In this document: positions 19,036 to 39,326 of the stretch, one piece after another
Layout of the letters: every line of letters starts with the position of its first letter
Numbering within the stretch: position 1 is the stretch's first letter
Assembly: GCA_965277715.1 (NCBI GenBank)
Contig: OZ255836.1
Coordinates: 2,944,001 to 3,008,000 of the forward strand
DNA length: 64,000 nucleotides
Source: Gammaproteobacteria bacterium
GTDB taxonomy: Bacteria; Pseudomonadota; Gammaproteobacteria; JBCCGL01
Direction: 5' to 3'
Notes under the pieces: generated by a model
Told to the model about the DNA's origin: nothing
What the model saw: only the letters and a program-made list of their open reading frames with translations
Databases searched by the model: none
Made by a program: the position numbers and the translations under genes

Positions 19036-19524
19036 TTATGAATTTGCAGTGTGTTTGTTGTTGAGTGCCGCCAGTATGGTTGGGTGTACAAAGCCACTGA
19101 CATCGCCATTCAAACTGGCGATTTCCCGCACCATACTTGAGGAGAGGAATGCATATTCCTGCGCGGCAGAAATAAAAACAGTTTCAACACCAGGGCACAT
19201 TTGGCGGTTCAGGCCCGCCAACTGCACCTCGTATTCAAAGTCAGACACTGCCCGCAGGCCACGGACAATGACCTTTGCCTGCCACTGCACGGCACACTCA
19301 ACGAGCAGGCCCTTAAAGCTTTTCACTTCAACATTCGGTAAATCCTGAACGACCTCACGCGCCAGCATCTCACGCTGCTCCAGCGCAAAAAAAGGGCGCT
19401 TATCTGGATTGTAAGCGATGGCGACAATAACGCGATCAAACATCTTCGCTGCACGTCTCGCCACATCGATATGCCCATTGGTAATCGGATCAAAAGTGCC
19501 GGGATAGATTGCTGTAATTGTCAT
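19036..19524 (-). CDS. coaD: Phosphopantetheine adenylyltransferase
   Basis: YPGTFDPITNGH, RGLRAVSDFEYE, SSSMVREIA. Confidence 0.97.
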   Translation of the reverse strand: MTITAIYPGTFDPITNGHIDVARRAAKMFDRVIVAIAYNPDKRPFFALEQREMLAREVVQDLPNVEVKSFKGLLVECAVQWQAKVIVRGLRAVSDFEYEVQLAGLNRQMCPGVETVFISAAQEYAFLSSSMVREIASLNGDVSGFVHPTILAALNNKHTANS

Positions 19525-20156
19525 ACCTGCCTACTGTCATTTCATCAGCGGCAAGATTGCATGATTTCACCGTTTTCGACAACTCATTTAGTTAGAATTA
19601 ATTTAGGGCACGCCCTCGACGTAAGCACTCATTTATCAACCGTGTCGGCATACGAATTTGGGACTGAGTGGCACTGATAGCAGTAAACGCCATTAATATT
19701 TCCGGCGCAGCACTGTGACTAAACGCCAGCTTGATAAAAACTGGTTTAAAAAAGCAAGAGGGTCAGGCTTGAATGGCACTTCCTTAAGCTGTAAGTATTT
19801 GAAGTAATTACAAAAAAAGCTGGTTCTATGGTAGGTTATTTGTTGCCAACACAAATACCCTTGATCCCACAGGAACCAGCCATCATGCAGAGTAATGTAA
19901 AAGTCAACATTCTTCAACGTCGCATCAAAAGCCGAGCTCAATCCTCGGATGCATTGAGTTTTTATCACTTGCTGACATCCTCTCAGTTACTTACGAAACT
20001 GGAAGAATTACAACCGGATTTTCGAGCGCGTCGCTATCCTCCTCTAGACACCTTATCGCTGTTTTTATACCAAACAATGAGTGCAGATCAGCCCTGCCAA
20101 CAAGTTGTCAACACACTCGCTGTACAGCGATTAAGTGAAGGTTTATCAGTGAGTAA
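19179..20156 (+). repeat. 978-bp direct duplication, copy 1 (copy 2 at 21756-22733)
   Basis: Near-identical sequence at a constant offset of 2577 with scattered SNPs. Covers the 5' part of coaD, its upstream region and the IS4 left end. Confidence 0.93.
19771..20156 (+). mobile_element. Truncated IS4-family element (left end and 5' of transposase)
   Basis: Starts with TIR GAATGGCACTTCCTTAAGCT; matches the element starting at 22348. Confidence 0.9.
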
Positions 20157-20706
20157 GAGTTCCAGGAACAGGCATCAAATAAAGTATATTCCAATTCAGA
20201 AATGAGCCTGAAGGAGAGGGTAATTAAGTCCCGGTCTTGAGGCGTTCATGAAATTGTTGGAAGAGTTTGTTTCGTGCTGAATGGCGTATTTCAACGGCTT
20301 CGTTGTCTGTCATTTCACGGGCAAATTCATCCCGTTTTTTAAAGGTCATCCCTTTTTTCAAGTATTGACTGGGGCGAGGGAGTGAGCGGAATTTCTCATA
20401 GGGTGTCATCCTATCTTCATAACGATATTTTTTGTGTTGTTTACCTTTGTCATCGGTCACGGTGGAAGGGAAATAGCAGGGGTGGTGGAAGTTGAGATAA
20501 CGGTGGAGAGGGCCGCTGTTAAGATCAGTAAATTGTTCAGCATACTGTTGTGGTATATGGCTGTAGCCATAGAGTTTGCGGATAACAGACCCATTTTTGC
20601 TTTCCACCAACCCGTTGTCGTTACTGTGTCGAGGACGTGATTTGGTGAGTTTAATACGCAGTTTTTCCAGTAGTTCAGCCACACTGTAGTTGATGTATTC
20701 ACCCCC
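20157..20706 (-). mobile_element. C-terminal remnant of an ISNCY/rve-type DDE transposase
   Basis: GGEYIN...TKSRPRHSNDNGLVESKNGSVIRK..GY...TPYEK. Fused in frame to the RAYT-like ORF. Confidence 0.75.
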
Positions 20707-20717
20707 AAAAAGGAAAA

Positions 20718-21748
20718 GGGGGCAATCGTATTTAATATTTTTCAAACGGTTGCAAACCTGCTCAAACACGCCCTTCAAGCTGCCGTCTGACAGCCCACTC
20801 TTTACATAATCAATTGCAGGAGAAAGGCTACTAACACGACTATATACAAACATATCAACCAGCGTTTTTAACGGCATATCTCCCAATTGCTGACAACAAT
20901 ATATCGCTACTTTACGAGGCAGATTCGCCCGTTGTCTCCCCCGCTGTCGCGTAAGTACATCACTCGCGTTAACGCCAAACACCGCTGCCACTGCATCGAC
21001 TATAGCTGCACCGTTTGGCTTGTCCGTCACAATACGGGACAAGTCCCCCGATATGTGCATCGACTCCCGGTTTTCGGCAATATACGTCTTGAAGGATTTG
21101 TCACCCAGTATCGTCGCCACATTGCCTTTGTTATAAAAACGGCCAATGTCCTCATCAATACCTTGACCAACATATGCCTTATAAGCAACGTAACGTTGTT
21201 TAGCACCGAGTGCACTATGGGTTGCCTCTCGATACAACCATTCCGGTGCTTTGGCTTGGTTGATGTAAGCGTGGTAACTCGACCAGGAATAGCTATCGAG
21301 CTTATCCGCTGTTACACCCTTTACTTCTATTGGGTTACGATGAATGTAACGGCTTAAGGGTAATAAGTAGTCGTCTGCATCCACAATAATCGCTTTATAA
21401 CGACTGCGAAAAAGAGGCCCATCCATGCGTCTAAGCCGGTTGTAGCGTTGTGTGTAGATACCATTGATATGCCGCATGATGCGATCCAGATTAGCACGAG
21501 GGGTTTCGATCAATAGATGATAATGATTACCCATCAAACAGTAAGCGTGGGTGTAGGCATCAAAGCGTTTATGTGCTTCATCGAGCGTTTGTAGAAATGC
21601 TTGGTAGTAAATTTCGCCATGAAAGATGGTCTGTCTGGCTTTGCCACGATTCATAACGTGGTAGTAGGCATTTTCGTATTGTATTCGAGTAGGTCTAGGC
21701 ATCGTTTAAATTTATACTATTTTGAAAATATTAAATAGGATTGACCCC
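20718..21748 (-). mobile_element. RAYT-like HUH Y1 transposase with DnaA-domain-IV-like C-terminal HTH, bounded by GGGGTCAATC / GATTGCCCCC ends (CDS start 21702)
   Basis: MPRP.R....YYHVMNRG, AYCLMGNHYHLL (HUH), RYIHRNP (Y1), YSWSSY, C-terminal PRKVAIY..QQL...L. Confidence 0.85.
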
Positions 21749-21750
21749 TT

Positions 21751-22101
21751 TTATTCAGTTTCAACACTAGGGCACATTTGGCGGTTCAGGCCCGCCAACT
21801 GCACCTCATATTCAAAATCAGACACTGCCCGCAGGCCACGGACAATGACCTTTGCCTGCCACTGCACGGCACACTCAACGAGCAGGCCCTTAAAGCTTTT
21901 CACTTCAACATTCGGTAGATCCTGAACGACCTCACACGCCAGGATCTCACGCTGCTCCAGCGCAAAAAAAGGGCGCTTATCTGGATTGTAAGCGATGGCG
22001 ACAATAACGCGATCAAACATCTTCGCTGCACGTCTCGCCACATCGATATGACCATTGGTAATCGGATCAAAAGTGCCGGGATAGATTGCTGTAATTGTCA
22101 T
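21751..22101 (-). pseudogene. coaD: 3'-truncated duplicate of coaD
   Basis: Nearly identical to the first ~115 codons of coaD; cut next to the TGACCCC end of the RAYT-like element. Confidence 0.92.
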
Positions 22102-22347
22102 ACCTGCCTACTGTCATTTCATCAGCGGCAAGATTGCATGATTTCACCGTTTTCGACAACTCATTTAGTTAGAATTAATTTAGGGCACGCCCTCGACGTA
22201 AGCACCCATTTATCAACCGTGTCGGCATACGAATTTGGGACTGAGTGGCACTGATAGCAGTAAACGCCATTAATATTTGCGGCGCAACACTGTGACTAAA
22301 CACCAGCTTGATAAAAACTGGTTTAAAAAAGCAAGGGGGGCAGGCTA

Positions 22348-23913
22348 GAATGGCACTTCCTTAAGCTGTAAGTATTTGAAGTAATTACAAAAAAAGCTGG
22401 TTCTATGGTAGGTTATTTATTGCCAACACAAATACCCTTTATCCCACAGGAACCAGCCATCATGCAGAGTAATGTAAAAGTCAACATTCTTCAACGTCGC
22501 ATCAAAAGCCGAGCTCAATCCTCGGATGCATTGAGTTTTTATCACTTGCTGACATCCTCTCAGTTACTTACGAAACTGGAAGAATTACAACCGGATTTTC
22601 GAGCGCGTCGCTATCCTCCTCTAGACACCTTATCGCTGTTTTTATACCAAACAATGAGTGCAGATCAGTCCTGCCAACAAGCTGTCAACACACTCGCTGT
22701 ACAGCGATTAAGTGAAGGTTTATCAGTGAGTAATACGTATACAGGGAGTTATTGTAAAGCGCGACAAAGGCTGCCAACCCCCCTCGTCTCAGGGCTTGCC
22801 CGTTGTACAGGCGAGTGTGTGGCGAATGAAGCGGCCAGTCACTGGCACTGGCAAGGGCGTTCAGTTAAATTGGTTGACGGCACCACTGTGACAATGCCCG
22901 ATACGCCTGAAAATCAGGTAGTTTATCCGCAACAGTCAGGCCAGCAAGTGGGGATCGGTTTTCCTCTTTGTCGCTGGGTAGGAATTATTTGTTTAGCCAG
23001 TGGTGGTGTTCTCGATGCGGCAATGGGTCCTTTTAAAGGTAAGGGAGCGGATGAGCAAACGTTATTGAGAAAAATACAAAATGCGCTTAAACCGGGTGAT
23101 ATTGTGGTGGGTGATGCCTATTTTGCGGGTTATTTTTTTCTAGCAAACCTTATAGAGCAAGGAGTAGACGGTGTATTTGAGCCGCATGGTGCGCGGCGTA
23201 AATCCACAGATTTTCGAGAAGGCAAAAGGCTTGGATCGAAGGATCACCTGATTTGTTATACAAAGCCCAAGAAGAGACCAGAGTGGATGAGCGAAGAAGC
23301 CTATGAAGCGGCTGCTGATGAAGTGGTTATACGTGAACTGAAAGTGGGTAAAAAACTGTTGGTGACAACGTTGTTATCAGTTAAATCGGCGTCTAAAGAG
23401 GCGCTTAAACAGCTCTACAAAGAACGCTGGCATGTCGAACTTGATTTACGCCATATAAAAACGACAATGAAGATGCACACCTTCCGTTGTAAGACGCCAG
23501 AAATGGTTGAGAAGGAAATGTGGGTACACATATTAGCTTACAACCTTATTCGCTTATTAATGGCGCAATCTGCCTTACTAGTGGACATACTGCCTCGACA
23601 GATAAGTTTTAAGCATACGTTACAAATTTGGGTAGCGTATCGTTATCAGAAAGGCGGTAGCCCTCTGGGTAGTGATAAGGTGTTGGCGCTATGTGCGTTG
23701 ATTGCAGAAAACTGTGTGGGTAATCGACCGGGGCGTATTGAACCAAGAGTGGTTAAACGAAGACCCAAACCGTATCCTTTATTGATGCAGCCAAGGGACG
23801 TGGCCAGAAGTGTTGTTAAAAAATATGGCCATCCCAAAAAACAGAAATAGGTCATTTACAATGAAAGTACTTCCATATTTTTCATGTACTTAGAGCTTAA
23901 GGAAGTGCCATTC
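22348..23913 (+). mobile_element. Complete IS4-family element (transposase 22462-23850)
   Basis: TIRs GAATGGCACTTCCTTAAGCT / AGCTTAAGGAAGTGCCATTC; 11-bp TSD GGGGCAGGCT(A/T); LVDGT, GDAYF and Y..RW.VE...R..K (YREK) motifs. Confidence 0.93.
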
Positions 23914-24000
23914 GGGGCAGGCTTATTATTCACCATACAACGACTAATACGTATAAAAACAGTGATTTCCAGCAAGAAATATAAGAAATAACTGCCTTGA
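23914..24000 (+). repeat. ~92-bp GGGGTCAGG...CCTTGACCCC mini-element, copy 1 (end interrupted by IS1111)
   Basis: Nearly identical to 29289-29379. Its terminal TGA|CCCC is split by the IS1111 and continues at 25421. Confidence 0.85.
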
Positions 24001-25420
24001 TGGGATGGACCCGCTCCCTTTGAATCGGCATCACAATGTGCCAAGATTGAGCGGTAACACAACCAATCTATTATCACCTAATAAAGGTAGGAGCGAGTCC
24101 ATGAACGAGAATATCACCCGATTGGGTATTGATCTAGCCAAAACTATTTTTCAAGTGTGTGGTGCTAATAAACACGGTAAAGTGGTGTTTAATAAAAAAC
24201 TCAAACGCGATCAGCTACCGTCTTATATCGCCAATGTACCGGCCTGTGAGGTGGTGATGGAAGCGTGTGCGACGTCCAGTTATTGGTCGCAGGTTTTCAC
24301 ACGCTACGGCCACACCGTCAAACTCATTAACCCAGCCTATGTACGCCCTTACGTTAAAACAAACAAGAACGATGCAGCGGATGCAGAGGCCCTGTGTGAA
24401 GCAGCCTCACGTCCGAGTATGCGATTTGTTCAGCCCAAAACACCCGACCAACAAGACAGCCAATTATTCCACCGGGTGCGCAGTCGGCTAGTGTCAAAAC
24501 GGACGAGTTTAAGTAATCAGATAAGAGGGTTACTGGGTGAGTATGGGCTGATTATTCCGGTGGGTATTCACCACGTTCGCCAGCACTTGCCTGCGCTTTT
24601 AGAGGATGCTGAAAATGCCTTGTCAGCCACAGCACGTGAAGTGTTCAGTGCTTTGTATGATGAACGAGTGGAGATTGATAAACGCGTAACACACTACACA
24701 AAACGGTTAACCCAGTTGAGCAACCAGCATGAGCGCTGTCAACAATTAAAAACACTGCCGGGTGTAGGGCCTCTGGTCGCCACTGCCTTGTTTACAGCAA
24801 TGGGCGATCCGGGTTTTTATAAAAACGGGCGTGAGTTTTCCGCCTTTTTGGGTCTCGTTCCTCGTCAATATAGTTCGGGGGGCAAAACACAACTCAAAGG
24901 TATCAGTAAACGCGGGGACGAACACGTGCGCACTTTGTTGATACAGGGGGCGCAAGCGGCATTAAGTCGAATGCCTAAACACGATGATGGGCTAAGTCGT
25001 TGGGCCTGTCGTGTCAAAGCACGTCGGGGCCATTGTGTGGCGGCGGTGGCATTGGCCAATAAGCTCGCCAGAATTAGCTGGGCGGTAGCGGCTAATAATA
25101 CAACTTACGTGCATAAAACAGTTTAATAACATCGTTGAAGATTTCTTACCACGAGGTAGCGAAAGAGCAGTAAAGGGTATAACAGGTTAAACCGGCTCAG
25201 ACAGAACCTGGAGGGGGTCATGGTCTTCACAGACCGATTGCTTGATGAGGTGTCTGAGCACGGTTCCCATTATGGCTCTGGACGGATAAACAAATACAAT
25301 CCGTCCTATCGAGAAGCCGGATATATGACTGCTAACCTTATTTACTGTGTCTGCTCTGAACGCTAAAAAATGAATGAACGATTAAAAAATTGTTGAATTT
25401 AACTGCGGGTCCATATATGA
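24001..25420 (+). mobile_element. IS110-family, IS1111-type element (transposase 24101-25126)
   Basis: GIDLAK, MEAC, KNDAADA (DEDD RuvC) and GLVP..YSSGG motifs; subterminal IRs TGGACCCGC / GCGGGTCCA; TGA core on both sides; long right non-coding end. Confidence 0.92.
25190..25335 (+). ncRNA. Predicted bridge/seek RNA in the IS1111 right end
   Basis: Two stem-internal-loop-hairpin modules (CTCAGACA/TGTCTGAG around GGTCT-TCAC-AGACC; GGACGGAT/ATCCGTCC). Loops match the target (GGGGTCA, CTTGA) and the donor ends (CCCAT, ATATATGA). Confidence 0.72.
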
Positions 25421-25458
25421 CCCCTTTTTTTCATTCTGCTATGGTGTATTATTGAGAA

Positions 25459-25803
25459 ATGAAAGAAAAAACACCTATACGGGTTACTCTTCGACTGCCC
25501 GCTGATGTGCATGAAGAGATAGCCTCCGCATCCTCCTTGGCTGGCCTTAGCCTGAATCAAGAGATAGTGTCACGCCTCAAGGAAACGCTTAGGCAAGATA
25601 AATTCTTGGTCGATTCCAATGAATGGATAAATAATCACACGGCTACTTATGATGATTTGTTAGCCTTATATGAAACAGCTACTGTAGAGGTGGAGGAGTG
25701 GAAAGAAAAAGACTACAGCGTTACAACTGCTATGCAAGGTTTTGAGGCTGTAAGCGATATTAAAAACCGCCTTGCCGCTATAGAGAAAAAGCTAGATAAA
25801 TAG
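25459..25803 (+). CDS. Arc-like ribbon-helix-helix DNA-binding protein
   Basis: VTLRLPADVHEEI...A...GLSLNQEIVSRL. Confidence 0.75.
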   Translation: MKEKTPIRVTLRLPADVHEEIASASSLAGLSLNQEIVSRLKETLRQDKFLVDSNEWINNHTATYDDLLALYETATVEVEEWKEKDYSVTTAMQGFEAVSDIKNRLAAIEKKLDK

Positions 25804-25820
25804 CTTTAGGAGCGTGACTA

Positions 25821-26657
25821 GTGGAAATAGCCTATAGCACTATTGAGAAATCCCCAGTATCCATCCATGTCTTTTGCAAAAAGTCTGACGCTGAAATAGA
25901 AAAATTGCGGAGATCATTGTTATGTCCCAAGTGTGAAGTTAAGGCGTGGTTCCGCAAAAAATCAAAAGATGGTAAATCAGCCTGCTTTAATGCGTATCAT
26001 GCAGAAGGCTGTACTGCATCGACACAAAAGCATCAAATAAAAAATAATACCGAAGTTGTCGAAGACGTAAGGCAAATCATTACAAACAATGATACGGTGG
26101 ATTTAAATTTCGTTGTGTATAGCAGTCCAATTGCTGATGGTGAAAATACGTTTCAACAGTCACTTACTATTAAAAACGTCGATTCTGCAAGTTCTCGACA
26201 CAGTATTACACCAGCAATAGAAAGAAACCAAACAAGAAGGTTATCCTCTATATTAAAGCTACTTACAGGCTCGGAGGATTTTGCCAAATCTAATATCAAG
26301 ATTGACACAGGGCCACCAGCTAAACATCCATATTATGCTAGAAATCTGTTTGTGAGCTTTGATGCAATAATCGAAGAGCATATAGGGAAATGGCGCGGTT
26401 TTTGGGGTGTGATCAGTCATGCCAATGAAGAAGTTACATGGTTAAATATTGCAAACAGTTTAGATGTTAGCATCCCTATATCAGCTATTAAGGCTTATTT
26501 GTTAAAAACGTTTAGGATAATGGAAGCAGAAGATTTGGCTGGGGCGCAAGTGCTAGTCTTTGGCTATCTCAACGTTTCAAAAACCAAAGCTAAAAAATAT
26601 TTCATAAAGCTTCGGAATAATAATCCTGCTCATATTTTTCTCAAACTGGACAACTAA
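25821..26657 (+). CDS. Hypothetical protein with N-terminal CxxC...H...C zinc-finger (CoiA-N-like)
   Basis: LLCPKC...WFRKKSKDGKSACF.AYH..GC. Long intact ORF within an operon. Confidence 0.6.
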   Translation: MEIAYSTIEKSPVSIHVFCKKSDAEIEKLRRSLLCPKCEVKAWFRKKSKDGKSACFNAYHAEGCTASTQKHQIKNNTEVVEDVRQIITNNDTVDLNFVVYSSPIADGENTFQQSLTIKNVDSASSRHSITPAIERNQTRRLSSILKLLTGSEDFAKSNIKIDTGPPAKHPYYARNLFVSFDAIIEEHIGKWRGFWGVISHANEEVTWLNIANSLDVSIPISAIKAYLLKTFRIMEAEDLAGAQVLVFGYLNVSKTKAKKYFIKLRNNNPAHIFLKLDN

Positions 26658-26663
26658 CCTCAA

Positions 26664-28631
26664 ATGGAAATAGAAAAGAAATTTAAAGTCCAAGTCCAAA
26701 AGGATCATCTGTCTAAGGTGGCTTCTGGAAAGCCAATAATCGGGTTGTGTGAACTTATTTGGAATGCTTTTGACGCTGACGCAAGCAATGTAAACGTTTA
26801 TTTTAATGAAGGTCAATTTGGTGTTGACCGGGTAATTATTTCCGACGATGGCACCGGCATTAAATATGGTGAAGCTGAAAAATTATTCATTGGTTTAGGT
26901 GGTTCGTGGAAGTCCAGTGGCAAGCAGACAGAAAAAGGGCGGTTTTTACACGGCCAAGAGGGTCAGGGGCGCTTCAAAGCTTTTACCATTGGGCGTGTAA
27001 CTGATTGGAAAGTTGTTTATAAAGAAGACAACAAGTTCTATGAATACACGATTGAAGGTAAAGCGGAGGCTATTGACGAATTTTTATTAAGTTCTAATAA
27101 AGATTCAGACCAACGCAAAACTGGTGTAACTGTCGAAATAACTGAAATCAATAAAAATTTCCATATCCTTGATGAAAACAAGGCACTTGAAAAACTTGCA
27201 CCAGTCTTTGCCTTGTACCTTAAAAATTATAGTGGGGTAATCCTCCGTATAGGTAGTCAAAAGCTGGATGCTTCAATAGCTATCAAGGATATTAAAAGTA
27301 TTGATCTGCCGGCATTGAGTATTGAAGATAAGGAACATTTTGTAAGCGTTGAAATAGTAGAGTGGAACGGTATTTCAGCGCGCGAAATATGGTTTGCTGA
27401 TTCAAAAGGCTTTCCACTTGAATCTTATGATAAACAAGTTCGAGGTATTGGAGAGAGTGGATTCAGTGCCTATATAAAATCGGACTACTTCCGTGAATTA
27501 AAAAACAAGGATTTATTATCATTACGCGACCTTGAAGCAAGCATTAGCGCCTGCTGCGAGACAGCAATCAATGCGGTCAAAGAACACTTCTTATTAAGGG
27601 CCTTGGAACAAGCAAGAAACCAAATTGACGAATGGAAAGATGAAGAAATCTACCCGTTCAAGGGTGAACCTGTGTCCCCTATTGAAGATGCTGAAAGAAA
27701 AATTTTTGATATTGTCGCCATTAATGTAAATAAAAGCCTTCCAGATTTTAAAAATTTAAATAAAAAATCTAAACAGTTTCAGTTAAGAATGCTGAAACAG
27801 GCGATAGAAAAAAGTCCTGAAGACCTTCAGATCATTATGACTGAAGTTCTAAATCTACCAAAAAATACACGGGAAAGTTTAGCTGAATTACTTCAAGGAA
27901 CAAGTCTTTCGTCAATTATTAATGCATCTAAGGTGGTGTCAGACCGAATAAAATTCATAACCGGTTTAGACCAGCTTGTTTTTAATCACAAAGACAACTT
28001 AAAAGAACGTACACAACTGCATAGAATCTTAGCTCAAAACACTTGGATTTTTGGTGATGGATTTACTTTGTCGGTTGACGATCAAGCACTAACTGAAGTT
28101 CTTAAACAACATGCTTCTTGCTTGGAAAATGATGTTGTAATTAACGATCCGGTAACAAGAGTTGACGGTCGTCGCGGCATTGTTGACTTGATGTTATCAA
28201 GACAACTGCCCCGAAACCGTGCCGACGAATTAGAACATTTAGTTATAGAGTTGAAAGCCCCTAAAGTTGTTATTGGTAAAAAGGAAATTGACCAGATAGA
28301 AAGTTATGCTTTTGCTGTTTCTAATGATGAACGATTTAGAAGTCTTAATACAAAGTGGGACTTCTGGATCATTTCAAATGACTATGATGATTATGCAGAA
28401 CTCAAACTTGAGAATGACAGCTTTGAATATGGCGTGATTTATAAAACCAGTAAAAAGCGTAATGTTACTATCTGGCTAAAAACATGGTCTGAACTAATTG
28501 CTGAAAATAAACACCGTCTTGAATTTATTCGTGACAAGCTAAATTATAATGTCGATAAAGAAAGCGCAATGAATCACCTGAAATCGACATATTCTGAATA
28601 TATTGATGGTGTGGTTTTGGAAAATAAATGA
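26664..28631 (+). CDS. GHKL (MORC/HATPase_c_3) ATPase fused to a C-terminal PD-(D/E)xK nuclease
   Basis: ELIWNAFDADA, DDGTG, G..GQGRF, TGVTVEI; C-terminal VDLML...VIELK.P...QIESYA. Confidence 0.8.
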   Translation: MEIEKKFKVQVQKDHLSKVASGKPIIGLCELIWNAFDADASNVNVYFNEGQFGVDRVIISDDGTGIKYGEAEKLFIGLGGSWKSSGKQTEKGRFLHGQEGQGRFKAFTIGRVTDWKVVYKEDNKFYEYTIEGKAEAIDEFLLSSNKDSDQRKTGVTVEITEINKNFHILDENKALEKLAPVFALYLKNYSGVILRIGSQKLDASIAIKDIKSIDLPALSIEDKEHFVSVEIVEWNGISAREIWFADSKGFPLESYDKQVRGIGESGFSAYIKSDYFRELKNKDLLSLRDLEASISACCETAINAVKEHFLLRALEQARNQIDEWKDEEIYPFKGEPVSPIEDAERKIFDIVAINVNKSLPDFKNLNKKSKQFQLRMLKQAIEKSPEDLQIIMTEVLNLPKNTRESLAELLQGTSLSSIINASKVVSDRIKFITGLDQLVFNHKDNLKERTQLHRILAQNTWIFGDGFTLSVDDQALTEVLKQHASCLENDVVINDPVTRVDGRRGIVDLMLSRQLPRNRADELEHLVIELKAPKVVIGKKEIDQIESYAFAVSNDERFRSLNTKWDFWIISNDYDDYAELKLENDSFEYGVIYKTSKKRNVTIWLKTWSELIAENKHRLEFIRDKLNYNVDKESAMNHLKSTYSEYIDGVVLENK

Positions 28632-28885
28632 ACCAAGTCCAGGCCATTGACGAACAAAAAACTATTGAAGATTACCGGGAGCTGATCAATGAGGTTTCAG
28701 GTAGCCCAACGTCTGAAAATATCCGAAAACTAGCATTGTGGGTTTACTATATCGCTCCCAAGTTACCCAACGAGGTTGAAAGCGGTGTTTGGGAAAGCCT
28801 ATATACCGCGTTACCTATTCAAGCTGTTATTGAAATTAACGAGCTAATTAGCAATAACTCTCAACCCCCGGTTACTAGAAACTAG
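28628..28885 (+). CDS. Small hypothetical protein, translationally coupled to the GHKL gene
   Basis: ATGA overlap with the upstream stop; 85 aa. Confidence 0.55.
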   Translation: MNQVQAIDEQKTIEDYRELINEVSGSPTSENIRKLALWVYYIAPKLPNEVESGVWESLYTALPIQAVIEINELISNNSQPPVTRN

Positions 28886-29287: not shown

Positions 29288-29379
29288 GGGGGTCAGGCTT
29301 ATTATTCACCATACAACGACTAATACGGATAAAAACAGTGGTTTCCAGCAAGAAATATAGGAAATAACTGCCTTGACCC
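29288..29379 (+). repeat. ~92-bp GGGGTCAGG...CCTTGACCC mini-element, copy 2
   Basis: Direct repeat of 23914-24000 with inverted GGGGTCA/TGACCC ends. Confidence 0.85.
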
Positions 29380-31270
29380 GAATGGCACTTCCTTAAGACG
29401 TAAGCAACTGATAGTAAAGAGTTTATTTATTCTTTCTAAGAAAAAAAATGATATTTTGAAAGTTGCCGCCAATGATAACCGGGATAGTTTTACAAATATT
29501 GCTTTCAAGAACCGGTGTTTGTCAAGGTAGTTGTCCGTTTTACTGTGCTACTTGCTTTTCAATTCCATTGTGCTTTTGTCTCATGGCCAAGCCTTCCTTT
29601 TCCGGGTTTAACCACACCCCCGATACCGGTTCGAGGTGTTTAATATCCTGGCTCCAGCGTTCAGGGTGTTTGGCCTTTGCTTGTTCATAAACTGCTTTTC
29701 TGGCTGCCAGTATCGCGTGATCTTCGCCTTTATGACGCGAGGCTGGTGTCACAAACCCAATGCCGCTATGGCAATGAGAGTCGTTGTACCATTGCACAAA
29801 TCCATGCACCCAGTTTCGGGCAGAGGCTAAACTATCAAATGGCTTTGACGGATAGGCAGGCGTGTATTTTAAGGTTCTAAACAGACTTTCTGAATAAGGA
29901 TTATCATCGCTTACCGATGGCCTGCTAAACGAAGGTATCACACCCAACCATTGCAGTTTTGCTAACATGGTAGCACCTTTCATCGGGCCACCATTATCCG
30001 CGTGTAATACCAATTGACTCTGGCTGCATCCCTCCGCTAAACAGGCACGCTGGATCAGCGCCGCTGCCAGATCAGCCGATTCACTGTCATGCACTTCCCC
30101 GGCAACAATTTTACGACTGTAAATATCCATCATCATGTAAAGCCGGTAAAACCACCCGGTTATGTTCGATTTCAAAAAGGTAATATCCCAAGACCACACC
30201 TCGTTTGGCCTTGATGCCAGGTAGCTGTTAGGTTTGTGCCGTTTTTTAGGCGCCGCCGCCTTACCTCGCCGCTGCAGTTGGTTTTCCGACTTTAACACCC
30301 GATAGAAGCTTGACTCTGATCCAATATACACACCTTCATCCGCCAATTTGGGCACAATTTGCGAGGGGGGTAGCGCTTGGTATTTCGCTTCATTACAAGT
30401 GGTGACGATCAATGCCCGCTCTTCTGCTGTGAACTTATTACCAGGCGCCTGTCGATGAGCGCTGGGTCTGCCATCAGCACGGACAGTACCCGCGTTTGCC
30501 CAGCGTCGGTACGTCTTAGGGTGTCACTCAAGCACTTTGCACGCTTTGCTTAATGTAGCGCCAGCGACAACGGCCTCTTTGATTAAACGGATACTATTTT
30601 GGCGATCTGAATGGCAGGTCATTCGTCCTCTCCCTCCCCCCAGATCGCTTGGGCCTTTTTTCTAAGCACCAGCAAAGCGGCTGTTTCGGCTAACGCTTTC
30701 TCCTTTCGGTGCAGGTCTTGTTCGAGACGTTTAATACGTTTATCCGCTTCTCTACGACTGGTTTGTAAACGTTTCGTTTGGGCGCGATCCCAGTCATTGG
30801 CTTGTTCACAAGCCATTCGCCATGCCTTAATCTGATCAGGGTACAAACCACGATGACGGCAATAAGCTGAAAGGTCTGTTTCGCTTAATGACGCACTTTC
30901 CAGAACCGCTGAAAACTTATCCGAAGAACCCCAACCTGCTGGTGTCAAATCGCCATCTGGCATGAGTTCGCCTTTCGCTCTTGCTGGGGCTCGCCAACTA
31001 TAAAGCGTACCTTGTGCAATGCCTTCTTCTTTGGCTAACCGGGAAATTGTCTGATTGTTCGGCGGCAGCATCTTCTTTAAAACAGCGGCCTTTCTTTCTA
31101 TTGGATAACGCATACCACTCTCTCTTTGCCTCCTGTAATAACTTATTGAATCCCAATTTAGGGAGGGGGACAACTACCCTGACACAGGGGGGAACCATAT
31201 GCCAAGTTATCTGAACCAAGCACATAATACCAATACTTTCAAATACTTACAGCTTAAGGAAGTGCCATTC
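29380..31270. mobile_element. Non-autonomous IS4-end derivative carrying an IS3 element
   Basis: GAATGGCACTTCCTTAAG at 29380 and CTTAAGGAAGTGCCATTC ending at 31270; no IS4 transposase inside. Confidence 0.75.
29520..31184 (-). mobile_element. IS3-family element (orfA ~30619-31113; orfB to 29540 with a premature stop)
   Basis: TIRs TGTCA(A/G)GGTAGTTGTCC; WSWDIT, HADNG and SESLFRTLK DDE motifs; in-frame TGA near 30525. Confidence 0.88.
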
Positions 31271-31464: not shown

Positions 31465-32783
31465 GGTTCTTCCCCGGTTTGTGTGAGGTTATAGTATTTC
31501 ATCCCCCCTTTGCTATTGAGAGACTCCGGTGCTATCGAGCCTTGAAGAACACTACAGCCAGCTCCTGGGCCTGACAGATGACTGGTCAGTGACATCAGTT
31601 GATTTAGACCCTTCAGGGTTAAAAGTATCCATTTCGTTGGCATTTAGCGGCAACCACGGCCCTTGTTCGCACTGTGGCGAAGTGAGTCCGTTCTATGATC
31701 ACCGTTCACAAGAGCGATCCTGGAGACACCTGGATACTATGCAGTTTGAAACGCGCCTACACAGTCGCATTCCCCGAGTAAATTGTCTGGAGCATGGTGT
31801 TAAAAGTATGGTGTTACCCTGGGCAAGCAAGCGCAGTCGTTTTACGTTGTTGTTTGAATTATTTTCCATCAGGGTGTTGCAAGCCTCACGTAGCGTCGAA
31901 GAGGCGCGTAAGTTACTGGGGCTTAGCTGGAACGCAGTGGAAGCCATCAAAGCCCGCGCTGTCGAGCGGGGACTTTCGCGTCGGGAATTGGTGACAATTG
32001 AGTACCTGGGTATTGATGAGAAGTCCCACCGTAAAGGGCATGACTATGTGACGCTCATCAATGATATCGATGGAGGGCGAGTATTGGATGGAGTGAAAGA
32101 TCGCACCCAGGCAACCTGTGAGGAGGCGTTGGAGGTTGCGCTGACGGATAACCAGCGAGAACAGGTGAAAGCTGTCGCGATTGATAGGTGGCCTGCGTTC
32201 ATTAATGCTGTTGAGGTAAAACTGTCAGACAGTGCGATTGTTCACGACCGTTTTCATATTAGCCAACACCTGAATAAGGCGGTGGATCAGGTCCGTCGTG
32301 ATGAACATAGAGACCTTTTGTCACAGGGCGATAGCCGGTTGAAAAAGAGTCGTTATCACTGGTTAAAAAATGAAGAAAATTTGTCTAACAAAGCAGCCGA
32401 GCACTTTGAGTCACTCAAGCATGATCAGTTATTGACAGCCCGAGCCTGGGCGATAAAAGAACTGTTTCGTGATTTTTGGACGTATAAGACAGCGGGTTGG
32501 GCAAAGCGTTTCTTTAGCGCATGGTATGCGTGGGCAATTCGGTGCCGATTGGACAGCATAAAGAAAGTGGCCAAGATGATAAAAACGCACATGCCGAACA
32601 TATTGACATGGTTTAAGCACACAATAAGTAATGCCGTGTCAGAGGGTTTGAATTCAAAAATTCAGACAGTCAAATCGAATGCAAGAGGGTTTCGTTCGTT
32701 TGAAAGCTACCGGCGGAGTATTTTGTTTTACTGCGGAAAGCTGGATAGGGAACCAGTGGCTTCACAATAATCGGGGAAGAACC
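31465..32783 (+). mobile_element. Complete ISL3-family element (transposase ~31529-32770)
   Basis: TIRs GGTTCTTCCCCG / CGGGGAAGAACC; 8-bp TSD GATATGCA; zinc finger CxxC..C..H, GIDE, DRFH, SNAVSEGLN. Confidence 0.93.
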
Positions 32784-32944
32784 GATATGCATAGGATGGG
32801 GGGGTGGGTTTGCTCAGCGGTGGGTTAAGTGCAGATTTTTATCATGTTTTGCGTGTCTGGTGCGGACACCGAATTTCTATACATGATTACCATCTGCACC
32901 ATTAACCCCTTTACCTTTAATAGCATCCGGGTATATTGGCAAGT

Positions 32945-33811
32945 ATGAATGACAACATCGCCCACCTACCGGAATCCAAACAGGACGAGCTAAGACGTAT
33001 TGCCGAAGTAATACGCAAAGAATGCGATAACGTGGAAATGGTTGTTCTATTTGGCTCCTATGCGCGTGGCGACTGGAAGGACGGCCCGCACGAACAGGGT
33101 CGGGGCCGAATGCTTATTCATAAAAAAAGTGACTACGATATTCTTGCTATTACCCGCAACGAGTACATTGCAAAAGATGTGACGCTTTGGCATAAGATCA
33201 AAGATGAATGTGCCAAACTGAACGTCAGCGCCTATGTTCGCATTCTCGCCCGTGATATTGAGTTTATCAATTACAAGCTTCATCAGGGACAGTACTTTTT
33301 TACCGAGATCATACAACAGGGTGTCGCGCTTTATGACAGTGGAAATGTAGAGCTGGATGAAAAGCGACCGCTTGACCCTGCTGAAGAAAAGCGGATCATT
33401 CAGGCGGATTTGGATGAGGTTTTCACCAGCGCAAAAGAATTCCTTATTGATTCAGACAGCGCTTTCGACAGGGGCAGTTATAAAAATTCTGCATTTCATC
33501 TCCATCAAGCATGTGAGCATGCTTATAAAACTATTCTGCTGATTTTCGCGGGAGAAAGTCCGCAAGAGCACCACCTGGATGTTTTAGGCGATATAGCAGC
33601 TGACTATTGCCCGGATTTGATTGGTGTAATACCCCGTGAAACCCCCGAACAAAAAGCGCTGTTTGAATTGTTGGACTATGCGTATATTGGTGCTCGTTAT
33701 GATCGGAGTTATAAAATCACCCAAGAGCAGTTAGCAGCTTTAATCCCCTGCGTGAAAAAACTGCATGAAGTGGTCGAAAAATGTAGTAGTGAGCGTATGG
33801 TGGGTTTTTAA
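32945..33811 (+). CDS. Fused MNT nucleotidyltransferase-HEPN protein
   Basis: LFGSYARG...SDYDIL; AFHLHQACE...H.L...AYIGARY. Confidence 0.85.
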   Translation: MNDNIAHLPESKQDELRRIAEVIRKECDNVEMVVLFGSYARGDWKDGPHEQGRGRMLIHKKSDYDILAITRNEYIAKDVTLWHKIKDECAKLNVSAYVRILARDIEFINYKLHQGQYFFTEIIQQGVALYDSGNVELDEKRPLDPAEEKRIIQADLDEVFTSAKEFLIDSDSAFDRGSYKNSAFHLHQACEHAYKTILLIFAGESPQEHHLDVLGDIAADYCPDLIGVIPRETPEQKALFELLDYAYIGARYDRSYKITQEQLAALIPCVKKLHEVVEKCSSERMVGF

Positions 33812-34691
33812 GGGGGCAAACCAATTATTCAATATTCAACTGACTTTCAATCTGGTAGATCATCTCATAGAACTCTCCGGTGTCTAACTGCTTTCTGATA
33901 TAGGCTATTGCGCTTGATACACCACCAGGATGACTTAGACCGAAAATAGTGAGTAATCGCTTTTAGTGACATACCGCTAAACCGCTGGCAGTAATACATC
34001 GCCAGTTTATGGGGAATGTTCACACTGCTTGCCTTGACTGAACAAAATACTGCCTTCGCTCACCCGGCAACAACTTGCCACAGTGCTTACTATCAAGTGG
34101 CTGGCCAACTTTTCCCGCAACTAAAGCGTTGTATATCCTCATCAACCCCTTGACCTACATAGTCTGCGTAGCGTTGATAGCTGTTTCGCGCCGGTAAACA
34201 GGTATAAACGTGATTGCGGCACAACCAAGCGGGGCTCGATGTCTTTCCTATATAAGCTGGGTAACGAGACCAGGGATAGCTCTCTAGCGATTGAACCAGA
34301 GTGGCAATAGATAGGCGCCTTCATCGACATTCAGGGCCTTAAACCGTCCTCTAAACTAATAGCCATCGGTTTTTTTAAGACGGTTATAACGTTATGTATA
34401 AACACCATCGACGTGCTGCATGATGCGACTGAGGTTAGCATCCGGTGTTTCCAGTGGTAGGTGGTAGTGGTTGCCCATTAGGCGGTATATGTGAATTACT
34501 GCCCGGAAACGGTCTGCGGCTTCGGCCAATGTAGTGAGAAACGCTTGGTAGTAAGCTTCGCCATGAAAAATCGCCTTACGCTCCCGACCACGGTTCATTA
34601 TGTGGTAGAAGGCGTTTTCGTATTCTATGCGCTGAGGCCTTGGCATCGGTTGATATTCACACAATCTATACGAAATAACTAGACTGACCCC
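33812..34691 (-). mobile_element. Decayed second RAYT-like Y1 transposase element with the same end motifs
   Basis: MPRPQRIEYENAFYHIMNRG...MGNHYHL, FRGRFKA, YVGQGVDEDI and DnaA-C-like pieces in shifted frames; TGACCCC at 34685 and GGGGGCAA at 33812. Confidence 0.82.
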
Positions 34692-34704
34692 TTTTGCTCT
34701 GCTT

Positions 34705-34843
34705 TTGCTCAAGGCCTTAGCCCGACATACTTCTTCGGCAGAGGAAGCCTGTATCTCAGGAATATTCATAAACTCCTTCTTGTTTAAAGATTTAATTTGC
34801 ATCAGAAAACTTTCGAGTGTTACCCGTTATAAATTCGAGCATT
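34705..34843 (-). pseudogene. N-terminal remnant of a Ham1/RdgB-type non-canonical purine NTP pyrophosphatase
   Basis: MLEFITGNTRKF... and IPEIQASSAEEVCRAKA match the Ham1 TGNxxK and PEIQ...E....KA motifs; interrupted by a stop and a frameshift. Confidence 0.6.
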
Positions 34844-38178: not shown

Positions 38179-39326
38179 AAAGGCTGCCAACCCCCCTCGT
38201 CTCAGGGCTTGCCCGTTGTACAGGCGAGTGTGTGGCGAATGAAGCGGCCAGTCACTGGCACTGGCAAGGGCGTTCAGTTAAATTGGTTGACGGCACCACT
38301 GTGACAATGCCCGATACGCCTGAAAATCAGGTAGTTTATCCGCAACAGTCAGGCCAGCAAGTGGGGATCGGTTTTCCTCTTTGTCGCTGGGTAGGAATTA
38401 TTTGTTTAGCCAGTGGTGGTGTTCTCGATGCGGCAATGGGTCCTTTTAAAGGTAAGGGAGCGGATGAGCAAACGTTATTGAGAAAAATACAAAATGCGCT
38501 TAAACCGGGTGATATTGTGGTGGGTGATGCCTATTTTGCGGGTTATTTTTTTCTAGCAAACCTTATAGAGCAAGGAGTAGACGGTGTATTTGAGCCGCAT
38601 GGTGCGCGGCGTAAATCCACAGATTTTCGAGAAGGCAAAAGGCTTGGATCGAAGGATCACCTGATTTGTTATACAAAGCCCAAGAAAAGACCAGAGTGGA
38701 TGAGCGAAGAAGCCTATGAAGCGGCTGCTGATGAAGTGGTTATACGTGAACTGAAAGTGGGTAAAAAACTGTTGGTGACAACGTTGTTATCAGTTAAATC
38801 GGCGTCTAAAGAGGCGCTTAAACAGCTCTACAAAGAACGCTGGCATGTCGAACTTGATTTACGCCATATAAAAACGACAATGAAGATGCACACTTTCCGT
38901 TGTAAGACGCCAGAAATGGTTGAGAAGGAAATGTGGGTACACATATTAGCTTACAACCTTATTCGCTTATTAATGGCGCAATCTGCCTTACTAGTGGACA
39001 TACTGCCTCGACAGATAAGTTTTAAGCATACGTTACAAATTTGGGTAGCATATCGTTATCAGAAAGGCGGTAGCCCTCTGGGTAGTGATAAGGTGTTGGC
39101 GCTATGTGCGTTGATTGCAGAAAACTGTGTGGGTAATCGACCGGGGCGTATTGAACCAAGAGTGGTTAAACGAAGACCCAAACCATATCGTTTATTGATG
39201 CAGCCAAGGGACGTGGCCAGAAGTGTTGTTAAAAAATATGGCCATCCCAAAAAACAGAAATAGGTCATTTACAATGAAAGTACTTCCATATTTTTCATGT
39301 ACTTAGAGCTTAAGGAAGTGCCATTC
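38179..39326 (+). mobile_element. 5'-truncated copy of the IS4-family element
   Basis: Near-identical to ~22766-23913, including the right TIR. Confidence 0.92.

Follow-up and report, generated by a model that had tools for sequence, protein, structure and literature searches.

Positions 24001-25420 of the 64,000-nt stretch of DNA analysed here (the window; part of contig OZ255836.1, from a marine gammaproteobacterial chromosome) hold a 1420-bp insertion sequence (IS) of the IS1111 group within the IS110 family. The element is an unnamed member of this group, distinct from IS1111 itself, and consists of a gene for a 341-aa transposase with 100 nt of non-coding DNA on its 5' side and 294 nt on its 3' side. 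Taking together the domain content of the transposase, the conserved structure of the right end and the way in which its variable strands follow the surrounding DNA across relatives, this copy very probably couples a DEDD recombinase to a two-module RNA whose internal loops read the target and the element's own joined ends. The coordinates of all features are collected in Table 1.

Two properties that tell the IS1111 group from the IS110 group, namely subterminal inverted repeats and a long non-coding region downstream of the gene (PMC11187229; PMC11208160), are both found here. The repeats ATGGACCCGC and GCGGGTCCAT match at 10 of 10 positions, a length that falls within the 7-17 bp given for the group, where such repeats are set in from the ends by short terminal extensions (PMC11208160); the downstream non-coding region is long, with 294 nt against 100 nt upstream. 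Insertion is site-specific and without a conventional target duplication, the two junctions having the trinucleotide TGA in common and nothing longer. When up to 3 mismatches are allowed, each end of the element has one exact or near-exact copy within the window.

The protein shows the organization of IS110-family recombinases, with an N-terminal DEDD/RuvC-like domain, a C-terminal Transposase_20 domain and a conserved Ser/Thr-Gly. The Pfam models PF01548 (DEDD_Tnp_IS110, 5.2e-19) and PF02371 (Transposase_20, 3.8e-23) match beyond their cut-offs, and the NCBIfam model NF033542, 'IS110 family RNA-guided transposase', scores 342 bits (cut-off 140). Both collections agree with the original prediction made on this DNA, which had described an IS1111-type element with a transposase of the RNA-guided IS110 family. 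In an alignment of 15 sequences (the transposase and 14 relatives), D11, E54, D91, D94 and the G251-L-x-P...G260 signature are invariant; within the latter P254 and G260 never change and S258 is nearly invariant, the window protein carrying the motif GLVPRQYSSG around S259-G260. Relatives of the same architecture align over 97-100% of the 341-aa protein. Solved structures exist for IS110-group proteins only, and the similarity to these (ISCro4, E 5e-13; IS621, E 1e-11) is confined to the C-terminal part.

Relatives were sought in several collections. The element gave no megablast match among plasmid records, where the best protein relative found by tblastn is 52% identical. Scanning of genome contigs, in a collection that does not hold the source genome, confirmed 559 relatives, of which 79 loci were kept (numbered with the prefix L); the best is 69% identical and no close copy was found. 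The nearest protein relatives, 80% and ~72% identical, come from metagenome sources. The close clade comprises L001 (69% protein identity), L002-L004 (61%, all in one assembly) and L018 (53%); a further locus of 63% identity, L005, is unusable, with its middle masked, a degenerate right end and a left junction CGA/TGGG.

The long right end contains a structured, covarying non-coding RNA. The segment 25184-25336 folds with a minimum free energy of -55.7 kcal/mol (z = -3.68), and 0 of 200 shuffled sequences fold as low. A MAFFT alignment of five clade members yields 35 consensus pairs, 13 of which keep pairing through two-sided changes; in the outer stem, CTCAGAC/GTCTGAG of the window element is matched by CCCAAGC/GCTTGGG in L002 and by CACCTGC/GCAGGTG in L018. 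From these aligned sequences we derived a covariance model, which was run on the window and 50 of the 79 loci (51 sources; the 29 omitted loci are further copies in one Rickettsia-endosymbiont assembly) and returned 45 matches at E <= 0.01, distributed over 44 of these sources; the window has exactly one. Every match lies downstream of a transposase match, except for a second, minus-strand copy in L019. Over 39 distinct RNA rows, 86.4% of the cells pair, compared to 62.2% in column shuffles (none of 500 as high) and 30-38% when partners are shifted by 1-3 columns, and 28 of the 35 pairs have changed on both sides, counts that come from an alignment fitted to the covariance model and thus favouring the structure; the MAFFT-based pairs, independent of this fitting, agree in direction. 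For helix 1 of module 1 the proportion of paired cells rises to 96.4%, with 8 of 8 pairs changed on both sides. RNA folding and covariation across homologous right ends, proposed in the original prediction as a check on its guide RNA, therefore do return a conserved two-module RNA.

Each module encloses an internal loop in which the strand complementary to the DNA top strand stands 5'. The motifs that had been singled out beforehand are all found exactly at the positions given for them: CTCAGACA (25196-25203) and TGTCTGAG (25251-25258), GGGGTCA (25214-25220), CTTGA (25241-25245), CCCAT (25266-25270) and ATATATGA (25321-25328). The four segments named there as guides correspond to the four internal-loop strands, in the strand order reported for IS1111 seekRNAs. 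In module 2, the 3' loop strand GAUAUAU continues into the GA of the closing stem.

Whether such strands are guides can hardly be read from one sequence. In 5000 shuffles of the 278-nt non-coding region, scored by match length to flanks and ends, the 7-nt match to the right flank was reached 933 times, the 6-nt match to the left end 790 times and the 8-nt match to the right end 108 times; all four matches jointly were reached in 0 of 5000. Since the matches of the single sequence are weak one by one, it is the comparative evidence that carries the assignment of guides. Within the clade, the left flank of every element recurs in its own 3' target strand (AGATTTGA in L001, CTGGCTGA in L002-L004, TGGCTGA in L018, CTTGA in the window), and the 5' target strand is the complement of TGA or GA plus the right flank. 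Even single bases follow: L002 and L003 differ at one guide base beside GGGG (AUGGGG and AAGGGG, respectively), in step with their right flanks CCCCAT and CCCCTT.

The same relation was measured over the wider set of relatives, end anchors being obtained for 36 of the 44 plus-strand RNA matches. For both the target-loop and the donor-loop test we picked 23 non-redundant representatives, one per group of near-identical guides. With the summed longest exact matches between inner module 1 and the flanks as the measure, the mean is 12.78 for an element's own flanks, 8.20 for the flanks of other elements (n=506) and 8.17 for its own flanks in the wrong sense; own flanks are strictly best in 17 of the 23 elements, including the window element. 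Loop strands complementary to both target strands thus track the target across relatives, and in this copy they extend over 5 + 7 nt, the left part being weak. As for the donor loop, its 3' strand tracks the right end of the element through ATATATG, ATCTATG, ATGTATG, ATGTACG, ATGCATG and ATACATG, and is identical to own ends at 7.22 of 9 positions compared to 5.77 of 9 for the ends of other elements. The 5' donor strand tracks the four-base left extension (TGGG, TGAG, TGAA, TGGT) with a weaker signal (5.48 vs 5.22 of 7), the clear cases being TTCATCA/TGAG in L018, ACCATCA/TGGT in L027 and TTCATCA/TGAA in L015 and L023. The combined identity of the donor strands to own ends is reached by 0 of 5000 permutations, and the second loop accordingly holds strands complementary to the element's own ends. 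Like the anatomy of the element and its conserved structure, this covariation of guide strands with flanks and ends is an observation. A positive control is provided by L082, an IS1111-type element on the Klebsiella pneumoniae plasmid NZ_CP142901.1 (~1420-2775 of the locus) that the model also detects: 8 + 8 nt of its loop strands match the flanking DNA, which is the terminal inverted repeat of an adjacent IS903B.

Table 1. Features of the IS1111-group element and of its insertion site (positions in the window)
Feature	Position	Strand	Description
IS1111-group insertion sequence	24001..25420	+	1420 bp; boundary uncertain by the 3-nt TGA seen at either junction
Left subterminal inverted repeat ATGGACCCGC	24005..24014	+	10 nt; offset 4 nt from left end
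Promoter-like site TTGAGC-16-TATTAT	24047..24074	+	5' of transposase gene; weak, 1 site vs 3.0 expected in shuffles
Transposase gene	24101..25126	+	341 aa + stop; AGGAG 5' of ATG; DEDD/RuvC-like and Transposase_20 domains
Bridge/seekRNA-like structured RNA	25184..25339	+	Match of covariance model R1, 151 bits; ~155 nt, two internal-loop modules
Module 1, target-binding (predicted)	25195..25259	+	Outer stem 25195-25202/25252-25259; ACCU/AGGU stem 25206-25209/25248-25251
Target loop 5' strand GGAGGGGGTCA (RNA: GGAGGGGGUCA)	25210..25220	+	GGGGTCA complements top strand of TGA + CCCC
Module 1 apical hairpin	25221-25225 with 25232-25236	+	
Target loop 3' strand ATTGCTTGATG (RNA: AUUGCUUGAUG)	25237..25247	+	CTTGA = left flank + TGA; next TG = first two bases of element
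Module 2, donor-binding (predicted)	25260..25332	+	Stems 25260-25265/25327-25332 and 25273-25277/25315-25319
Donor loop 5' strand CCCATTA	25266..25272	+	Complements TGA + TGGG at left junction, one G-U
Module 2 variable hairpin	25283-25287 with 25299-25303	+	
Donor loop 3' strand GATATATGA	25320..25328	+	8/9 bases identical to element right end CATATATGA
Predicted junction promoter part	25393..25420	+	TTGAAT, 17-nt spacer, TATGA; with left-end T in circle, TATGAT as -10 hexamer
Right subterminal inverted repeat GCGGGTCCAT	25405..25414	+	10 nt; offset 6 nt from right end
Right target half	25421..25431	+	CCCC then T-run
87-nt repeat unit, copy 1	23914..24000	+	Right tip ...GCCTTGA = left target half; 95% identical to 29290-29376
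87-nt repeat unit, copy 2	29290..29379 (unit to 29376)	+	Target uninterrupted; cut after CCC by IS inverted repeat at 29380

The left junction of the element reads ...CTGCCTTGA / TGGGATGGACCCGC and the right junction GCGGGTCCATATATGA / CCCC followed by a T-run. TGA stands at 23998-24000 and again at 25418-25420, which makes the boundary of the element ambiguous by 3 nt. An uninterrupted target, CTGCCTTGACCC, is found at 29368-29379, where it directly abuts the inverted repeat of another IS (GAATGGCAC...). This copy had been taken as proof of the empty site; it does confirm 12 of the 13 reconstructed bases, but not the fourth C, because the other IS begins at 29380, directly after CCC. Here, as in the uninterrupted sites directly upstream of the elements in L002 and L018, TGA is present a single time. 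It is covered by both target strands and the 3' donor strand of the RNA, and by the 5' donor strand with one G-U in the window element and perfectly in L018. As the empty sites contain a single TGA and the occupied sites one at each junction, and as the guide strands cover it, we read it as a core shared by donor and target that exceeds the CT of IS621 in length. The 3' target strand moreover matches on into the element, for 7 nt (CTTGA+TG) in the window element and for 11 and 10 nt in L001 and L002, respectively, which recalls the 'handshake' dinucleotides of IS621 that pair after strand exchange (PMC13626964); the two features may be the same.

The target half with the core is fixed in the clade. 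Each of the close relatives whose two ends can be read (5 of 5) is inserted in TGA/CCCC, so that, at clade level, the relatives do share the target, as had been suggested for checking; their left flanks differ (...GATTTGA, ...CTGGCTGA, ...CTGGTTGA and ...TGGCTGA). In L003, the right flank from 3848 consists of tandem 8-nt units (CCTTGATG) directly after the insertion site, followed by an open reading frame (ORF) that by its appearance is a candidate serine-recombinase N-terminus. Outside the clade, L017, L027, L061, L023, L006, L066, L078 and L069 have TAA at the left junction where their 3' target and 5' donor strands read TGA, and their 3' donor strand agrees in its last 1-2 bases with the start of the right flank; where the crossover falls is less evident in this set.

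Several observations count against a guided recombinase at this locus, beginning with the fitted alignment behind the pairing statistics. The 5-nt match to the left flank (CTTGA) is by itself at chance level, being reached by 4507 of the 5000 shuffles. Guide and site disagree in detail, as GCUUGA in the guide corresponds to GCCTTGA in the site and the 5' guide strand has five G facing four C in the site; these differences indicate that the copy occupies a slightly off-consensus site. A better-fitting site with five C, where the right-hand match is two bases longer, is present at the left tip of repeat unit 2 (29295, minus strand). Strict pairing of the window guide specifies CT+TGA+CCCC (9 nt), and when the TGA sites of both strands were scored in the window minus the element (n = 2167), the reconstructed empty site shared the top score with 3 others. 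The guides of L001 also fit their own site less well, the 5' guide having one mismatch in the CCCC part. In Rfam 15, no curated RNA family matches the window segment 23500-26000 at E <= 1, and the promoter scan shows no sigma-70-like site 5' of the RNA in the integrated state, its sole site (24047-24074) being at chance level. The element family is also largely decaying in the source genome, where one 90% protein cluster holds 13 distinct variants, 2 full-length and 11 fragments (66-300 aa), from which we conclude that the element is multi-copy and mostly decayed. Finally, two changes are private to this copy: of 45 aligned RNAs, only this one has A at 25260, disrupting the G-C closing pair of module 2 that the other 44 keep, and R189 replaces a hydrophobic residue that is Leu in 12 of 14 aligned relatives (L189R). 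Because of these two changes the copy may be impaired. Its earlier description as seemingly intact thus applies to the ORF, the catalytic residues and the inverted repeats, but has to be qualified for A25260 and R189.

Carried further, these points lead to an alternative that we regard as unlikely, though worth keeping in mind: the copy may be a dead relic, with A25260, L189R or both abolishing activity and the guide match recording a past insertion only. The uniqueness of A25260 among the aligned RNAs, the replacement of the prevailing Leu by R189, the fragmentary state of 11 of the 13 variants and the imperfect left-flank match would all fit such a fate. A relic would less readily be expected to retain a 341-aa ORF with every catalytic residue, perfect 10/10 subterminal repeats and all its remaining helices; the A-C mismatch, which terminates a 6-bp helix, may be tolerated, and the copy could be served in trans by a recombinase or RNA that another copy encodes, a possibility considered for IS621 (PMC13626964). 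A guided recombinase remains the preferred reading of the element.

According to the original prediction, the natural target of the element is the end of another mobile element. The data do not show this. The inverted repeat of the IS4 element stops at 23913, and the 87 nt between it and the insertion point are taken up by a repeat unit whose right tip is the target. The IS4 inverted repeat belongs to a complete IS4-family element (22348-23913, 481-aa transposase) that is flanked on both sides by the 10-nt direct repeat GGGGCAGGCT, indicating that the motif is a target of the IS4 element and not its end. An outward extension of the IS4 inverted repeat over GGGTCAGGC was also considered and rejected, the 10-nt direct repeat on both sides fitting a target duplication. 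With the motif present as a direct repeat around IS4 and the IS4 repeat 87 nt away, insertion into another element's end is not established. Eight instances were counted of the short motif, in which an A-rich stretch is joined to GGGGTCAGGC on one strand, and none of them falls outside 19-40 kb of the window. They stand at both tips of the 87-nt units, next to four ends of IS4-type inverted repeats and ~40 nt upstream of two Y1-transposase genes. TGACCCC itself is found 13 times in the window compared to 6.4 expected, a twofold excess reached by 1 of 100 shuffles. The target is therefore best described as a short repeated motif, GC-rich and then continuing into a T-run, and acting as a hot spot into which two or more IS families insert. 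It may be a REP, one end of a small non-autonomous element or one end of the Y1 element.

The 87-nt unit carries imperfect inverted repeats at its tips (GGGGCAGGC... and ...GCCTTGACCCC), with a T-run after them, and it could be asked whether the protein itself chooses the site mainly by reading the shape or sequence of a palindromic REP-like hairpin, the matches between RNA and flanks being secondary or coincidental. The position of the target at such a tip, the use of the same motif by an IS4-family element and the constancy of TGACCCC in the clade, which leaves little covariation for that half, would be compatible with this possibility. We consider it very improbable, since the loop strands and the flank bases beyond TGACCCC change together across relatives, the RNA scaffold stays the same even where targets are quite different, and reprogramming of ISEc11 needed a change of its seekRNA (PMC11187229). 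The 106-nt unit, folded as single-stranded DNA, is in addition no more stable than shuffled sequences (z = -0.46; 65 of 200 as good), and a strong REPIN-like hairpin for the 87-nt unit was dropped for the same reason.

On this basis, insertion can be pictured as follows. The element would excise as a circle, as suggested by the published mechanism of the family. Joining of the ends would generate a TTGAAT-17-TATGAT promoter, a pattern that four of the five clade members show at their joined ends and lack when integrated; L001, with an extra terminal T, is the member without it. A circle-junction promoter has been described for the family (PMC11187229; PMC13626964). In the RNA, module 1 would read the target and module 2 the joined ends, CCCAUUA pairing with TGA+TGGG of the left end and AUAUAUGA matching the right end. 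The complex of recombinase and RNA would then insert the circle at TGA/CCCC, and the TGA overlap, present in donor and target, would be found at both junctions after insertion. Production of the RNA and its binding, circle formation and the chemistry of strand exchange are here presumed by analogy with the studied elements. That the conserved right-end structure is instead a DNA or mRNA feature, such as transposase binding sites, a terminator or a translational regulator, with no guide RNA, agrees with the lack of an Rfam family but is extremely improbable, because the hypervariable loop strands match their own flanks in a fixed sense (12.78 vs 8.17 in the wrong sense), unlike a terminator or protein-binding site, the sole terminator-like site is at the very end of the element (25407-25423), and right-end RNAs co-purify with the transposases of ISEc11, ISPa11, ISKpn4 and ISPst6 (PMC11187229).

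The surroundings of the element are rich in other mobile DNA. Further IS4 inverted-repeat ends (19771, 29380, 31270 and 39326) all abut a GGGKCAGGC-like motif, which suggests that the IS4 element prefers this motif as target. A segmental duplication of ~592 bp (19179-19770 / 21756-22347, 98% identical over the 300 nt listed) comprises the 5' part of coaD and the IS4 junction; the first IS4 copy is truncated near 20190, the remaining half being located at 38179-39326. A 492-aa protein (20224-21702, minus strand) combines a Y1 (IS200-like) transposase domain with a DnaA C-terminal helix-turn-helix, and a truncated second copy is located at 34392-34802 (minus strand); the match of the 492-aa protein to REP-associated transposases (RAYT) is weak, with 54.7 bits for a cut-off of 80. 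Both Y1 genes have TGACCCC and a T-run ~40 nt 5' of their start. Between the two 87-nt units, which have the same orientation, lies a block of four genes (~25459-28885) encoding an Arc-like protein of 114 aa, a 278-aa protein without family, a 655-aa GHKL-type ATPase with weak restriction-enzyme matches and an 85-aa protein; PADLOC returned one weak restriction-enzyme match for the block and nothing else. The block may be a cassette bounded by the 87-nt repeat. The segment 29380-31270 holds IS3-family genes (a 290-aa protein with an rve domain and an upstream 184-aa ORF) between IS4-type inverted repeats and is either a nested insertion or a chimera. It is followed, at 31529-33811, by an ISL3-family transposase (413 aa) and then a fused nucleotidyltransferase-HEPN protein (291 aa). 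The housekeeping genes of the window, among them torS, ubiB, nhaB and fadD, point to a marine gammaproteobacterium; the best named relatives of NhaB are 70-81% identical (e.g., Halieaceae, Oceanicoccus). Membership of the Enterobacterales was considered and rejected, as nhaB has only 64% DNA identity to that of E. coli.

A broader proposal can be put forward tentatively, and in our view it is rather doubtful as a whole: the window element, L001, L002-L004 and L018, from at least three other assemblies, might form a distinct IS1111 subgroup with a fixed TGA/CCCC half-site, a three-base overlap read by all four guide strands and a single RNA fitting the junctions, the empty site and the circle, living on a repeat shared with IS4 beside Y1 genes. 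The fit of one RNA to both junctions, the empty site and the circle would follow from the 3' target strand crossing the left junction and the 3' donor strand being equal to the integrated right end. If the proposal were true, the balance of insertion and excision in the subgroup would be set differently from that of IS621, and the locus would be a case of layered parasitism of one short repeat family.

With bridge RNAs already predicted for 93% of IS1111 elements (PMC11208160), the picture of the family is unchanged by the window element. What it adds is a compact 341-aa recombinase with a predicted guide RNA of ~155 nt in which each of the four guide strands is assignable from the DNA sequence, together with natural cases of retargeting in which single guide bases change along with the flank in relatives. 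It may serve as a worked example for the annotation of such elements and as a further candidate scaffold for programmable recombination.

Compared to the IS1111 seekRNA elements ISEc11, ISPa11, ISKpn4 and ISPst6 (PMC11187229), the window element is alike in the size of its transposase (within 330-350 aa), its GL-P----S(t)G motif, its subterminal inverted repeats and the long non-coding region downstream of the gene. Its RNA is also alike in having the top-strand match 5' of the bottom-strand match, with an overlap at the insertion point, and the ~155-nt model match is close to the long seekRNA of 154 nt. It differs in its target, TGA/CCCC, and its protein is at most ~52% identical to plasmid-borne relatives. 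Similarities and differences are also found with elements that enter repeats. IS4321 and IS5075 reportedly insert in the inverted repeats of the Tn21 family, a finding attributed to Partridge and Hall in 2003. With IS1111 elements entering the ends of other elements the window element has in common a specificity for a short repeat associated with mobile DNA; unlike IS4321/IS5075 and L082, its target is outside any recognised IS inverted repeat, 87 nt past the IS4 repeat at the tip of a repeat unit. With the REP-targeting ISPa11 (PMC11187229) and ISPpu9 (PMC12288879) it shares a short GC-rich intergenic repeat with palindromic partners and the presence nearby of a Y1 transposase gene with a weak RAYT match, but the repeat is found at 8 places only, in 19-40 kb of the window as counted there, and the RAYT match is below its cut-off. 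The comparison with IS621 and ISCro4 of the IS110 group (PDB 8wt6 and 9t56; PMC11208160; PMC13626964) shows several differences: the window RNA lies in the right end, as reported for IS1111 (PMC11208160), rather than in the left, the strand order in each loop is reversed, the subterminal repeats are long, the overlap is the three bases TGA rather than the CT dinucleotide, and protein similarity is limited to the C-terminal part. In common are the two-loop RNA, each loop of which pairs with both DNA strands, the overlap of the pairings in a core of donor and target, and a promoter, predicted here, at the circle junction.

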